The translations under genes were made by a program, and so were the position numbers. From contig JAZKAU010000002.1 in assembly GCA_040388985.1 (NCBI GenBank), forward strand, positions 247,642-311,641: a stretch of DNA of 64,000 bases. The letters run 5' to 3'. The DNA comes from Patescibacteria group bacterium. GTDB lineage: Bacteria > Patescibacteriota > Minisyncoccia > Phycocordibacterales > Phycocordibacteraceae. The notes under the pieces are model-generated. The model was not told the DNA's origin, did not search any database, and worked only from the letters and a program-made list of their open reading frames with translations. Below are positions 2,926-44,013 of the stretch, piece after piece; position 1 is the stretch's first letter; each line of letters begins with the position of its first letter.

Positions 2926-3002
2926 GCGCCCTTAGCTCAGTTGGTTAGAGCCCCTAGCTTATACCTAGGTGGTCCTTGGTTCGAGTCCAAGAGGGCGCAC
3001 CA
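2926..3002 (+). tRNA. tRNA-Ile, anticodon UAU (reads AUA); CCA encoded
   Basis: 77-nt cloverleaf. Acceptor GCGCCCT/AGGGCGC, D-arm GCTC-AGTTGGTTA-GAGC, anticodon stem CCTAG/CTAGG, loop CTTATAC, T-arm CTTGG-TTCGAGT-CCAAG, discriminator A, then CCA. Confidence 0.8.
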
Positions 3003-40246: not shown

Positions 40247-40840
40247 ATGCAACCGACCGAGACTCCGGTACATTTCATCAATCTCGAATACTTCTTCCGG
40301 ATCCTGTACAACCTCCTGCACGGAGGCGGCGTCAGCACCTTCAGCGTAACCGGCCTTCTAGCAACGGCGGCCCACATCTGGCTTGTCTTTACGGTCATCG
40401 CCTATATCTTCTCTCTCGCTGCCATCGGCCTCCTCGTGTATAGCACCATGCGGCTCTATCAGATACGCAAGGAAGAGGAGCCGCGCTACGAGACTATCGA
40501 ACCGGAGGCCGCACGCCAGCACGTCGAGCACTCCCGTTGGTCGTACATCCAAAGCCTTATCGAGAGCGGTCAGGAAAGCGACTGGCGCCAGGCCATCATC
40601 GAAGCGGACATCATGCTCGAGGATACCCTCAGACACGCAGGCTATGCAGGTGAAGGAGTGGGCGATAAGCTCCGCAGTGCGAATCCTGCTCACTTCCGCA
40701 CGCTCCAGGACGCAGGTGAGGCCCACGGCGTGCGCAACCGCATCGCCCACGACGGCTCGGCCTACCAGCTCACGAACCACACCGCCTATCAGGCCATACA
40801 GAAATACCAGAATGTATTTGAGGAGTTCGGCGAGATTTAG
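40247..40840 (+). CDS. hypothetical membrane protein
   Basis: 197-aa ORF with two TM helices and no recognised motif. Confidence 0.5.
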   Translation: MQPTETPVHFINLEYFFRILYNLLHGGGVSTFSVTGLLATAAHIWLVFTVIAYIFSLAAIGLLVYSTMRLYQIRKEEEPRYETIEPEAARQHVEHSRWSYIQSLIESGQESDWRQAIIEADIMLEDTLRHAGYAGEGVGDKLRSANPAHFRTLQDAGEAHGVRNRIAHDGSAYQLTNHTAYQAIQKYQNVFEEFGEI

Positions 40841-40952
40841 GCTTGCAGTATCCATAAAAGACCGTATACTATGGATATAGCGAGCGAAGCATCGGGGATT
40901 TTCCCAAAGCGAGAGGCTAAGATGCAGAGCTTCGTTAGATAAAAATAAAAAT

Positions 40953-41290
40953 AGCGGGGTAGAGGAGTGGTACCTCGGGAGGCTCATCAAAAGGTGACCC
41001 TATCCGGTAACGGGTAGCGGAAAAACTCTCTAAATTGCTGGAATACCGTTAGAGCTTTCTGTGCTACAACGTGATTCGAAAGGGTGAGCGTGAATGCTTG
41101 AAAAACGGAAAGATTCGGCAATCAGCAGCCAAGCCGAGCCCATTCTAACGAATAGGCTCGGAAGGTTCAGAGACTATAATGGGAGGATCCCGCATCTATT
41201 AAGATTTGGGATCATGGTATAGTCCATTCCTGTTGGAAACATCAGGTGTAAAAGAACCTCCAGGCGCCGGTTCAATTCCGGCCCCCGCAA
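40953..41290 (+). tRNA. initiator tRNA-fMet (anticodon CAU) interrupted by a group I intron
   Basis: 5' exon 40953-40987: AGCGGGG-TA-GAGG-AGTGGTA-CCTC-G-GGAGG-CTCAT. 3' exon 41255-41290: AA-CCTCC-AGGC-GCCGG-TTCAATT-CCGGC-CCCCGCA-A. Very close to the E. coli tRNA-fMet 3' end. 1:72 mismatch (A1xA72). Confidence 0.8.
40988..41254 (+). ncRNA. group I intron (267 nt) in the tRNA-fMet anticodon loop
   Basis: 5' splice site after U36 with an internal guide GGUGA pairing the exon CUCAU. Omega-G at 41254. Core motifs P (AATTGCTGGAA, 41033), Q (AATCAGCAGCC, 41119), R (GTTCAGAGACTA, 41165), S (GGTATAGTCC, 41216). Confidence 0.8.
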
Positions 41291-41358: not shown

Positions 41359-41392
41359 GCAGAGAAAGGCGCCGAGAGGCGCCTTTCTCTGC
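41359..41392 (+). terminator. 15-bp stem hairpin with GAGA tetraloop downstream of tRNA-fMet
   Basis: GCAGAGAAAGGCGCC gaga GGCGCCTTTCTCTGC. Confidence 0.5.
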
Positions 41393-41429: not shown

Positions 41430-43988
41430 ATGCCCAATCTTCTTGTTCTTTCAGGGCTACAAAAGAAAACTTCCGCGTTCGTAGTGGTATGTATATTCGT
41501 TTGTGCTTTTCCCGTCTCCTTGGTGCACGCGGCTTCGGTGCCAGTGGTCGGATTCAATAACCAGCCGAGCCAGACATCCGATACAGCCGTTACTATAGAT
41601 GTTCATATCAATGATACTGAAAGCGATCCGTCCTCTATTTCCATTCGCTATTCGCTTGACGGGGGAAATATCTGGCACGATGCCATGCACCTTTCCGGCG
41701 CTTCTTTTCCCATATCAGGCAATAGCGTTACTGGAATAACGACTTATGGCGATGGTCCGAATAACCGTTCGAACGTAGCATTCCATTGGGATTTCAGCGC
41801 AGAGCCCGGAATCGCGAGCTCTACCGAGACGGAAATAGAAGTGACTCCCCATGATGCTTCTGGCGACGGCGAACCGATCGTGTCAGATCCGTTCATGCTT
41901 ACGGCGCCGACGCCACCAGCCTCACCACCCGTGTTCGCGGAAGACTCAGGAGCGGTGACGGACATCACGCAGACGTCCGTCATCGTGCACTACGACATGA
42001 GCAGTGAAGGTTCTGCTCCGCTCTCGCATTTCGAACTCGATTACGCGAGCGATGCGTATTATCTCGCGCACGCCTCTTACGCGGAACACACGCCCATTAC
42101 GTTCTCGGGAGCATTTGCCGACTCAGGTGCCACTAATGTTACCGGCCTTTCCTGCGGTGCGATGTACCACTTCGCGCAGACGTTCACGAATGGTGACGGA
42201 CAATCCGCGACTTCCACCGATGCGACTTTCACGACAAGCCCATGCGACGGGGGAGGCGATGGCGGAGGAACGCCGTTCACCGAAGGCGATGGTTCGAGCA
42301 ATACACCGTTCATCGTGGATGACTGTACGCAGATTCCGACGATAAACGACGATTTGAGCGCGGCATACCTCCTTGATGCGAACCTCGACTGTCGCGAGAT
42401 GGGTACCGATGTCATGATAGGCGGTTTTGGCATGAATCCCTTCACGGGAACGTTCGATGGTGGCGGGCATTCTATTGCCATTGACATAGAGAACGCGGGC
42501 CAGCCAGGCATGGGTCTTTTCCGCTCGCTGTATGGAGCAACCGTGCACGACCTCGCCATAGCGCCTGACAGCATAGTTCTTGGTCAAGATGTAGACGGGA
42601 GCATTGCCGGTTTTGCATATAACTCGACCCTGACGCGCGTGGGATCAGCAGCCTTCGTCGTATCCGCAGCTACGACGCCTCAGTTTCCGCTTGCCGGAAC
42701 GGGCGGACTCGTCGGCGCGCTCTTTAGCTCGCAGATATACGGATCGGAATTCACGGGCATCGCCGCCTCGCCTTTTATCGTCGGTGGCATCGCAGGCCTT
42801 GTCATGAATGATCTTTCTGACGGACCACCGTCATTGATCTCGCGTTCGGATTCGGTCGGAGGTATATATAGCGGACTTTCTGCGGGCGGCGTCGCAGGCT
42901 ATCTCGATGGCGGGTCACAAATCCGTAATAGCTACTCAAGCAGCACGGTGCAGTTCAATGACGAGTTTGCGGGTTCTGATCCGCAGACGGGCGGCTTCGG
43001 CGGCCTTGTAGGCGTCATGGCCAGCGGCATCATATCCCGTAGTTATGCCGCAGGCTCTGTTGCCGCTGGCCCAGACTCAGTATTCTTCCCGTCAGGCGGC
43101 CTTGTCGGTTTCATGGAGTCGCCGGACGCACGTATCGTGCATTCGTTCGCCGCGCCGAACATTACGACTGATGGGGCTCCCGTCGGAGGATTCGTTGGTG
43201 GCGTGAATGAATCGGAAACACCGTTAACAGGGTTATATGATGACTATTTCGACACGCTAAGGACTGAAGAGACCGTGTGTGTTTCCGGCGATACTAGTGC
43301 ACGAGCCGATTGTACGGGCGTAGACGGTAGCGCGAGCGGATACTGGCTCAACACGCATGATACGCCGATAGCGGCATGGAACATTTCTGAAGTGTGGGAT
43401 GTTTCTGGTGAGCATGATGGATTTCCACTCCTTCTCGGATATGCGGGTCCAGAAACAGAAGAATCAGATGCACGCGATTCTGGCGAAGACAGCGTTAGCG
43501 AGGATATTCCTCTTCCTTCGCATCATTCGGGCAGCGCGCCGTCTAAGCGCAGCGTGCTGAGTCGCCTCGACACGTATCTCAAGAATGGAGACAGCAAAGG
43601 CCTGGCGGAGTACGTGCAGCGTAACCAAGGACGTCTCGATCAATATGTCGAACAAGGTCAAGCGCTTCCTCCCGAAGTCGCGTCGCTTCTCAGTATCGGG
43701 CCTGCGGCCGCGCCTGTCGTCGTCGTGACGTATCCGCTTCGGAACCTTCAGAAAGGGATGGCGGGTGGCGATGTGAGCGCGCTCCAGACGCTCCTCATAA
43801 AGGAGGCGGCAGGGTCGGCCGCCTCAGTGCTTGCGCAGACCGGTGCAACGGGTTATTTCGGTCCGCTGACTCAAGCAGCGCTCGCTGAATATCAGAAAGC
43901 GCACGGTATCGTCCCGTCTGCCGGTTACTTCGGTCCGCTCACGCAAGCGTTGATGAAAGCTGCGGGATTGACGGGACTGTGGTGGTAG
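41430..43988 (+). CDS. secreted GLUG-motif repeat surface protein with Fn3-like N-terminal region and C-terminal PG_binding_1 domain
   Basis: 852 aa. Signal peptide. Repeated Gly-rich GGLVG / GGIAGL / GGVAGY / GGFGGLVG blocks (GLUG-like). C-terminal GATGYFGPLTQAALAEYQ. Confidence 0.75.
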   Translation: MPNLLVLSGLQKKTSAFVVVCIFVCAFPVSLVHAASVPVVGFNNQPSQTSDTAVTIDVHINDTESDPSSISIRYSLDGGNIWHDAMHLSGASFPISGNSVTGITTYGDGPNNRSNVAFHWDFSAEPGIASSTETEIEVTPHDASGDGEPIVSDPFMLTAPTPPASPPVFAEDSGAVTDITQTSVIVHYDMSSEGSAPLSHFELDYASDAYYLAHASYAEHTPITFSGAFADSGATNVTGLSCGAMYHFAQTFTNGDGQSATSTDATFTTSPCDGGGDGGGTPFTEGDGSSNTPFIVDDCTQIPTINDDLSAAYLLDANLDCREMGTDVMIGGFGMNPFTGTFDGGGHSIAIDIENAGQPGMGLFRSLYGATVHDLAIAPDSIVLGQDVDGSIAGFAYNSTLTRVGSAAFVVSAATTPQFPLAGTGGLVGALFSSQIYGSEFTGIAASPFIVGGIAGLVMNDLSDGPPSLISRSDSVGGIYSGLSAGGVAGYLDGGSQIRNSYSSSTVQFNDEFAGSDPQTGGFGGLVGVMASGIISRSYAAGSVAAGPDSVFFPSGGLVGFMESPDARIVHSFAAPNITTDGAPVGGFVGGVNESETPLTGLYDDYFDTLRTEETVCVSGDTSARADCTGVDGSASGYWLNTHDTPIAAWNISEVWDVSGEHDGFPLLLGYAGPETEESDARDSGEDSVSEDIPLPSHHSGSAPSKRSVLSRLDTYLKNGDSKGLAEYVQRNQGRLDQYVEQGQALPPEVASLLSIGPAAAPVVVVTYPLRNLQKGMAGGDVSALQTLLIKEAAGSAASVLAQTGATGYFGPLTQAALAEYQKAHGIVPSAGYFGPLTQALMKAAGLTGLWW

Positions 43989-44013
43989 GCCGGTTCAATT
44001 CTGGCCCTCGCTA
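43988..44013 (+). repeat. partial direct copy of the tRNA-fMet 3' end (T-arm plus acceptor); candidate attR-like scar
   Basis: GGCCGGTTCAATTCTGGCCCTCGCTA versus the tRNA GCGCCGGTTCAATTCCGGCCCCCGCAA (24/27). Confidence 0.55.

Follow-up and report, generated by a model that had tools for sequence, protein, structure and literature searches.

An initiator-type tRNA gene of a Patescibacteria bacterium, very probably functional, split directly after its anticodon by a group I intron

Positions 40953 to 41290 of a 64,000-nucleotide (nt) stretch of DNA from a Patescibacteria group bacterium (contig JAZKAU010000002.1, 247,642 to 311,641; the whole stretch is called the window below) raise the question of whether two short tRNA-like segments lying 267 nt apart are the halves of a working initiator tRNA gene, and whether the sequence between them is an intron that removes itself. 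We consider it very probable that this is a functional initiator tRNA gene of a bacterium related to Candidatus (Ca.) Kaiserbacteria, within the Patescibacteria or candidate phyla radiation (CPR), and that it is split between tRNA positions 36 and 37 (36/37) by an endonuclease-free group I intron of 267 nt. The anatomy of the locus, the match to the group I family, covariation, orthology, conservation above that of the neighbouring genes and the existence of intronless alleles of exactly the expected sequence are seen directly, while catalysis by the intron at 40988-41254 would follow the established group I pathway. An earlier, sequence-only reading of this DNA had proposed an initiator-type tRNA(CAU) gene interrupted within the anticodon loop; its coordinates, its intron length, its junction, the U at the 5' splice site and the terminal G all proved exact, and the proposal itself is borne out by the Rfam match, by covariation, by the orthologues and by intronless alleles that equal the predicted ligated exons.

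The split gene and its product

The two exons, AGCGGGGTAGAGGAGTGGTACCTCGGGAGGCTCAT and AACCTCCAGGCGCCGGTTCAATTCCGGCCCCCGCAA, stand on either side of the 267 nt and are read on the plus strand of the window, as are all of the features described here unless otherwise stated. The 5' exon (40953-40987, 35 nt, ending in CUCAU at U36 as placed by ARAGORN on the spliced sequence) comprises the 5' acceptor strand with A1 unpaired, the D arm with an A11:U24 pair and the GGAGG strand of the anticodon stem, and is invariant across 16 orthologues. The 3' exon (41255-41290, 36 nt, beginning AACCUCC) supplies A37 and A38, the CCUCC strand, a variable loop of 4 nt, the T arm, the 3' acceptor strand and A73; CCA is not encoded, the bases that follow being CAC. 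The intron itself (40988-41254, 267 nt, final base G) is inserted between U36 and A37 of a CAU tRNA. ARAGORN called no tRNA at 40953-41290 in the raw window and called tRNA-Met(cat) once the 267 nt had been removed; its intron mode offered a tRNA-Pro(tgg) at the raw locus, which is wrong. A junction at 33/34 was rejected, there being no CAUAA ahead of the 3' strand of the anticodon stem; 36/37 alone yields a 7-nt CUCAUAA loop with a U before the intron and a G at the intron's end.

The Rfam model RF00028 (Intron_gpI) matches 40975-41246 (+) over its full length (model positions 1-253) at 70.4 bits (E 7.9e-16), against a gathering score of 50 bits, as would be expected from the group I assignment already made from the letters; the orthologues score 59-87 bits, and no second match was found in the window even at E<=0.1. 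The P, Q, R and S elements that had been claimed are present as AAUUGCUGG, AAUCAGCAGC, GUUCAGAGACUAUA and GGUAUAGUCC, together with the omega-G at 41254. Folded alone, the intron has a minimum-free-energy z-score of -3.7 relative to its shuffles. The list of open reading frames (ORFs) holds none longer than 52 aa inside it, and it therefore carries no homing endonuclease.

Judged by its sequence, the product appears to be an initiator of the tRNA-fMet type, and would be aminoacylated, formylated and used in the P site as such. It is 71 nt long, with the expected CAU anticodon in a CUCAUAA loop. Positions 1 and 72 are unpaired in the window tRNA and in all 15 orthologues, none of which has a Watson-Crick 1:72 pair; the mismatch had been foreseen, and it takes the form A1xA72 rather than the C1xA72 of E. 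coli. The formylation determinants A73, G2:C71 and C3:G70 are in place, along with G4:C69, and the D stem holds A11:U24 (purine11:pyrimidine24). The anticodon stem, GGAGG/CCUCC, had been described as the G-rich stem of an initiator, which is right for G30:C40 and G31:C39 but not for 29:41, an A-U pair, leaving two of the three canonical G-C pairs; this au/GC/GC arrangement is documented as a natural variant among the initiators of alpha-proteobacteria and mycoplasmas (PMC5389676).

Compared with E. coli sequences, the spliced tRNA is identical to tRNA-fMet at 59 of 71 positions (83%), to elongator tRNA-Met at 41 (58%) and to tRNA-Ile2 at 45 (63%); its last 24 nt agree with tRNA-fMet at 22 positions, in keeping with the near-identity of the 3' halves noted earlier. 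Across the family, position 1 varies among A, C and U and A72 is nearly constant (two variants have U72), so that relatives show C1xA72 or U1:A72 in the same gene. Separate intronless CAU tRNAs of the elongator type (G1-C72, Y11:R24) are found in two relatives, L026 and L087. In most bacteria AUA is read by a lysidine-modified CAU tRNA, a UAU anticodon being unusual. The window encodes a tRNA-Ile(UAU) at 2926-3002 (+; ARAGORN; Rfam tRNA model, 69 bits), which would make a lysidine-type tRNA-Ile2(CAU) unnecessary.

Splicing would proceed as follows. The pre-tRNA would be transcribed as a single RNA, with the intron folding into helices P1-P9, and the exon end UCAU would pair with the guide GUGA, placing a U.G wobble at the splice site. 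Exogenous guanosine held in P7 would attack after U36 (40987); the terminal G (41254) would then occupy the guanosine site while the free 3'-OH of U36 attacked after 41254, joining CUCAU to AACCUCC in a 71-nt tRNA to be finished by CCA addition.

Fold and kinship of the intron

The window sequence was aligned with 15 full-length orthologues of its own type (class A, defined below), giving 16 pre-tRNAs. In the RNAalifold structure for these sequences all four stems of the tRNA appear, the intron being enclosed by the anticodon stem, as do P1, P2, P3, P4, P5, the P5 extension, P6/P6a, P8 and P9; 37 of the 93 pairs in this fold are compensatory. In an explicit P1-P9 model that includes P7 as a pseudoknot, 98.8% of cells are paired, versus 39-43% in controls in which the partners were slid by 1-3 columns; 35 pairs are changed on both sides, versus 7-9 in the controls, and none of 500 shuffles reached the covariation of the model, a result that, with the folding z-score, lies well outside what chance would give. 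The P1-P9 helices that the sequence-only reading had called for thus have the backing of covariation among 16 sequences. The covarying helices are P2, P3, P5, P5a, P6a, P8 and P9, while P1 (UCAU/GUGA with its U.G), P4, P6, P7 and the omega-G are invariant in all 16.

In order along the RNA, P1 (40984-40997) joins the exon UCAU (40984-40987) to the guide GUGA (40994-40997) by four pairs, all of them invariant in 16/16, with the U36.G wobble at the 5' splice site. The guide had been given as GGUGA; GUGA does pair, U.G wobble included, but the extra G is unpaired to the exon. P2 (40998-41020) has 9 bp, one bulge and a GUAA tetraloop, with five of its nine pairs double-changed, that is, altered on both sides. 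The 5' strand of P3 (41026-41030; 3/5 pairs double-changed) is partnered by 41181-41185 and is followed by the invariant P4 (41036-41041/41122-41127) and by P5 (41046-41048/41116-41118; 2/3 double-changed). P4 and P5 enclose, within 41036-41127, a peripheral extension of about 60 nt made up of P5a (41055-41062/41105-41112; 7/8 double-changed), P5b with a GAAA loop (41069-41091) and a helix of two pairs labelled P5c (41063-41064/41096-41097), the latter two as modelled. P6 (41128-41130/41164-41166) is invariant and P6a (41134-41140/41155-41161; 6/7 double-changed) variable, with an insertion of about 90 nt in three relatives (L015, L062 and L073). The P7 pseudoknot, GACUAUA/UAUAGUC (41172-41178/41218-41224), presumed to be the guanosine-binding helix, encloses the 3' strand of P3 (41181-41185) and P8 (41186-41191/41208-41213; 3/6 double-changed). 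The P9 hairpin (41229-41246) has a GAAA tetraloop, four of its six pairs double-changed and one U.U mismatch in the window copy, and the omega-G (41254), the last intron base, stands at the 3' splice site as a G in 16/16.

Nakagawa et al. (2026, mSystems) described 333 intron-containing tRNA genes in 18 phyla from 4,934 complete genomes, with the classical sites tRNA-fMet 33/34, tRNA-Leu 34/35 and tRNA-Arg 36/37, and group I introns in about 40% of Patescibacteria genomes (PMC13011429). Their 95 complete Patescibacteria genomes held 22 intron-containing tRNA genes, mostly with IA introns at 35/36 in tRNA-Asn/Asp; there were two Met(CAU) introns at 33/34, none of type IC and none in fMet at 36/37 (PMC13011429). 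The rows listed from their Table S5 include fMet 33/34 introns of subgroup IC3 in Bacteroidota, Desulfobacterota, Nitrospirota and Omnitrophota, and a tRNA-Ile2 36/37 intron, labelled IA1, in Bacteroidota; an fMet 36/37 intron is absent among these rows, and a case in another phylum is possible (PMC13011429). Since fMet introns in other phyla had already been reported, one outside the cyanobacteria is not new, nor are tRNA introns in CPR bacteria, and to call the present one notable on that ground, as had been done, was an overstatement.

Searched with a profile of class A introns, the best of all labelled references is the 35/36 intron in a tRNA-Asp gene of contig L128 (E 3e-15); the Actinomycetota tRNA-Lys introns (IB2) among the listed references give E 4e-10, and the listed IC3 examples 1e-5 or worse. 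With the window intron alone as nhmmer query, the listed fMet 33/34 IC3 examples are reached at E 0.003 or worse and Microgenomates 33/34 introns at about 0.01 or worse. Placed in this way by its nearest labelled neighbours from the listed part of Table S5 (PMC13011429), rather than by subgroup covariance models, the intron core is to all appearances of the IA/IB type and not IC3, nearest to the published Patescibacteria tRNA-Asp/Asn introns; we expect that a formal subgroup scan would call it IB-like. The L128 contig has an intronless initiator tRNA at 1123-1193 and, 1.3 kb away, a split tRNA-Asp(GUC) at 2529-2840 (RF00028, 82 bits); after splicing, ARAGORN assigns the latter either to Asp, with the intron at 35/36, or to Ala, with it at 33/34, and G3:C70 and G73 favour Asp.

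The Patescibacteria tRNA-Asn/Asp 35/36 introns resemble that of the window in phylum and in their site within the anticodon loop, are overlooked by standard tRNA finders, are mostly endonuclease-free, and share its Q, R, S and P9 sequences. They differ in that the window intron sits in an initiator tRNA at 36/37. Some 30 additional nt lie between P3' and P8 in the Asp intron of L128, and in our reading these are the P7.1/P7.2 helices typical of IA; in the window, by contrast, P3' (41181-41185) adjoins P8 (41186-41213), and the P5 extension of about 60 nt is present instead. The window intron very probably belongs to the pool of introns in Patescibacteria tRNA genes. Self-splicing in vitro has been shown for the 35/36 Asn/Asp family (PMC13011429).

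The comparison that had been drawn with the classical cyanobacterial tRNA-fMet intron holds for the type of host gene, the anticodon loop and the splicing chemistry. It does not extend to the site or the core: the cyanobacterial type is inserted 3 nt upstream, between CU and CAUAA (33/34), and its IC3 core reads, in the listed examples, CCCGAGCC / GUGUAGAGACU / AGAGA(A/C)AGUCC, against AAUCAGCAGC / GUUCAGAGACUAUA / GGUAUAGUCC in the window, where an IA/IB core is found at 36/37. Some cyanobacterial copies carry PD-(D/E)XK endonucleases (PMC13011429). Beyond the common core, the window intron is not detectably related in sequence to that lineage.

The Microgenomates-type CPR initiator introns at 33/34 (43 species) share phylum and host gene with the window's and are, it seems, left unannotated too, but occupy another site and belong to another intron lineage. 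The listed Actinomycetota tRNA-Lys(UUU) introns at 34/35 (IB2) have a similar P4/P5 with a P5 extension (UAUGCUGGAACACCCUUAGAGCC... / GGCAAUCAGCAGG) and similar R and S elements; phylum, tRNA and site are all different, and the similarity is limited to the core and the P5 domain. The site after CAU at 36/37 is, we take it, that of the Azoarcus tRNA-Ile(CAU) intron. That intron is of subgroup IC3. It and the Bacteroidota Ile2 intron share with the window's not only the site but also the logic of P1 (exon ...CAU, guide GUG...), and all three are compact endonuclease-free ribozymes with GNRA loops on P2 and P9; their host tRNA is Ile2, whereas the window's is an initiator, and the similarity to the listed Bacteroidota example is weak (E 2e-4 to 0.016).

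Relatives, history and competing explanations

A scan of one genome per species with the pattern TATAGTC-N25-55-T arm-CCCCGCA gave 110 loci (L001-L110), each of which was parsed for exons and junction. Introns at 36/37 were found at 23 loci plus the window and introns at 33/34 at 43; about 27 of the 110 were discarded as intact initiator genes with a chance TATAGTC upstream (Chloroflexia, Peribacteria, Endomicrobium). Class A, the window's own type, has A1 and a 4-nt variable loop and numbers 15 full loci and two truncated ones, with titles including Ca. Kaiserbacteria (L026, L045, L096), Ca. Paceibacterota (L040, L080) and 'Patescibacteria group'. Eight loci, Ca. Yanofskybacteria among them, form class B, in which position 1 is C or U and the variable loop has 5 nt; most of its introns measure 187-214 nt, but one, in L003, is the longest of the family at 381 nt. 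When the window intron is aligned by nhmmer to those of three class B loci (L076, L084, L090), both ends are covered and positions of about 60-125, the P5 extension, are skipped. Most of the 33/34 group belongs to Microgenomates (Daviesbacteria, Woesebacteria, Shapirobacteria and others); many of its loci carry 'Gammaproteobacteria' or 'Saccharibacteria' titles, labels of metagenome-assembled genomes (MAGs) in third-party annotation records, which look unreliable and were not used, since by tRNA and intron sequence these loci fall in with ones named as Microgenomates or Paceibacteria.

The gene order in the window is LigA - GatC - GatA - 197-aa ORF - tRNA. Eight class A loci align to it across GatA, several of them also across LigA, upstream of the split tRNA, and in five of the loci the alignment takes in the 197-aa ORF as well. 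Among class A members the tRNA plus intron is 81-84% identical, versus 66-69% for the flanking LigA/GatA DNA. The CPR-like genome that had been supposed is confirmed in that the closest loci are from Ca. Kaiserbacteria and Paceibacterota MAGs, and the G+C content of the window, 55%, is consistent with Kaiserbacteria (Patescibacteria group, Parcubacteria group).

Searching metagenomes for the ligated exons, TAYCTCGGGAGGCTCATAACCTCCAG, found at least 120 contigs with an intronless gene. The commonest of these genes, on 21 contigs, is exactly the predicted spliced product of class A relatives, and is identical to the window's spliced product at 68 of 71 positions. As these natural empty-site alleles match the predicted ligated exons, they confirm the junction with single-base precision. 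Many of the intronless genes sit at the same place downstream of GatA, and in a neighbour-joining tree of GatA, which is unbootstrapped, intron-plus and intron-minus loci alternate within a clade 70-75% identical to the window in amino acid sequence, where, for example, the window, L080 and L006 are paired with L156, L169 and L129 respectively, all three of which lack the intron.

Such a patchy distribution could mean that a mobile intron has recently spread laterally into empty tRNA-fMet sites, by homing or by reverse splicing. The alternation of alleles among close relatives at one locus is what this would produce, group I introns are classically mobile, and related cores are found in other tRNAs as well as on virus-labelled IMG/VR contigs. 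Yet the window copy has no homing endonuclease ORF, and even the longest intron of the family has only the 381 nt given above; pairwise intron identity tracks GatA identity (Spearman 0.85, or 0.72 without the most distant member, over pairs that are non-independent), and distant hosts such as L058 and L087 bear correspondingly distant introns. Recent lateral spread is on this evidence unlikely. Because the identities of intron and GatA track each other and no endonuclease gene is present, the comparisons favour old and mainly vertical inheritance at this locus, with repeated precise loss, over frequent lateral movement.

A bolder proposal would make the intron-split gene the cell's only source of initiator, with all initiation passing through guanosine- and Mg2+-dependent self-splicing; the intron would be kept in some lineages as an RNA-level checkpoint coupling initiator supply to the cell's guanosine-nucleotide or energy state, many protein regulators having been lost, and would be the first described 36/37 initiator intron with a non-IC3 core. 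Taken as a whole this seems to us doubtful, and is put forward as speculation. Its component that initiation depends on self-splicing, which the sequence-only reading had also raised, is plausible, and rests on the gene being the only initiator copy; if that is true, all protein synthesis in this organism depends on a ribozyme.

The opposite suggestion is that the window holds a decaying or redundant copy with a poorly splicing intron, the cell being supplied by another, intact initiator gene. For it can be said that this tRNA commonly occurs in nature without the intron, that the window copy has its P9 U.U mismatch and extra P5b G.U pairs relative to the orthologues, and that 64 kb of the genome is the evidence base. 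But the intronless versions occupy the same syntenic locus in other organisms, and are thus orthologues rather than paralogues; no other CAU tRNA lies within the 64-kb window; and among the contigs fetched none has both a split and an intact initiator gene, L128, with its intact initiator, having its group I intron in tRNA-Asp. The window retains every catalytic-core position that never varies among the 16 orthologues, its exons are intact, and the better conservation of tRNA and intron than of the flanking protein genes is hard to reconcile with decay. We regard a redundant copy as very improbable. That the split gene is instead an elongator tRNA-Met, or a lysidine tRNA-Ile2 like the host of the Azoarcus intron, is hardly credible: the shared 36/37 site, which is also that of the listed Bacteroidota Ile2 intron (PMC13011429), the incomplete set of three G-C pairs and the A rather than C at position 1 speak for it, but the unpaired 1:72, A11:U24, G2:C71, C3:G70 and A73, the much higher identity with tRNA-fMet of E. 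coli, the occurrence of C1 or U1 in this gene among relatives, the separate elongator-type CAU tRNAs of relatives and the window's own tRNA-Ile(UAU) all speak against it.

Several points nonetheless weigh against a functional, self-splicing initiator gene. Splicing of this intron is predicted from its sequence. P7 and P4 never vary and are backed by conservation only; P7, being invariant in 16/16, gives no covariation evidence. The window copy has blemishes compared with its orthologues, namely the P9 U.U, a P1 loop that differs from theirs and two G.U wobbles in P5b, and no convincing P10 could be drawn, the anticodon stem that brackets the intron probably aligning the exons in its place. At two hallmark positions the tRNA is unlike a canonical initiator, with A1 in place of C1 and A-U at 29:41. 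The view of initiator gene copies spans 64 kb of the genome, and a second gene is possible. The limits already given for the GatA tree and its correlated pairs count on the same side.

Significance, viral matches and neighbouring elements

Across the scan, at least 23 species representatives have a 36/37-split and at least 43 a 33/34-split initiator gene, almost all of them Patescibacteria, so that the initiator genes of at least 66 species representatives are missed and, in our reading, are unlikely to be annotated. Because standard tRNA finders miss the gene, genomes of this CPR lineage will seem to lack an initiator, and inferences about completeness or a 'missing essential gene' drawn from this will be wrong. 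The known abundance of group I introns in Patescibacteria tRNA genes is extended to the initiator tRNA at a second site, and a single syntenic locus now offers a clean series of alleles with and without the intron, which should be useful for studying intron loss. No new category of biology is opened; the main value lies in annotation and in this natural series of intron gain and loss.

The R...S core motif (GGTTCAGAGACTATAATGG ... GGTATAGTCC) is found unchanged in 24 contigs labelled as viral in IMG/VR (L231-L254). These were set aside as regards tRNA introns, none of the 24 having a class A-type tRNA 5' exon upstream. In about nine readable contigs the translation following the motif or intron is YGAQDVYLTGNPQITFFK, which we take to be the major capsid protein of large DNA viruses, and the introns of these nine or so contigs appear to sit in protein-coding genes.

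Upstream of the split gene, the 197-aa ORF (40247-40840, +), between GatA and the tRNA, is without a Pfam or NCBIfam match; its position is kept in several relatives, with about 70% nucleotide identity over 40576-40761. A 210-aa minus-strand ORF that overlaps it (40358-40990) and enters the tRNA 5' exon is probably spurious. A possible promoter, TTGCAG-16 nt-TATACT, lies at 40843-40870 (+), about 80 nt upstream of the tRNA, and a TTGCRT-N17-TATACT sequence is found directly upstream of the orthologous tRNA in L040, L096, L062 and L073. About 70 nt downstream of the tRNA, at 41359-41392 (+), is a hairpin of 15 perfectly paired bp, capped by a GAGA loop and lacking a U tract, which may be a terminator or a processing signal. 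A sigma-70 and terminator scan of the plus strand returned nothing usable, calling neither 40843-40870 nor 41359-41392.

A 23-nt stretch from the T arm and 3' acceptor end of the tRNA has a degenerate direct repeat nearby: 41266-41288 recurs at 43989-44011 (+), 2.7 kb downstream, with 21 of 23 positions identical, where 0 such matches are expected by chance. The repeat begins directly after the stop codon of an 852-aa surface-protein ORF (41430-43988) that has PG_binding_1, fn3 and Glug matches and is without a counterpart in the relatives. The repeat pair looks like the attL/attR-type scar that would be left by something inserting at the 3' end of the tRNA; no integrase was seen. In the Ca. 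Paceibacterota locus L040, about 60 nt of the tRNA 3' end and trailer (1087-1160) are likewise repeated, near-perfectly, 1.5 kb downstream at 2668-2725, the two copies flanking a 292-aa ORF of no assigned function, and the repeats suggest that insertions may target the 3' end of the split tRNA.

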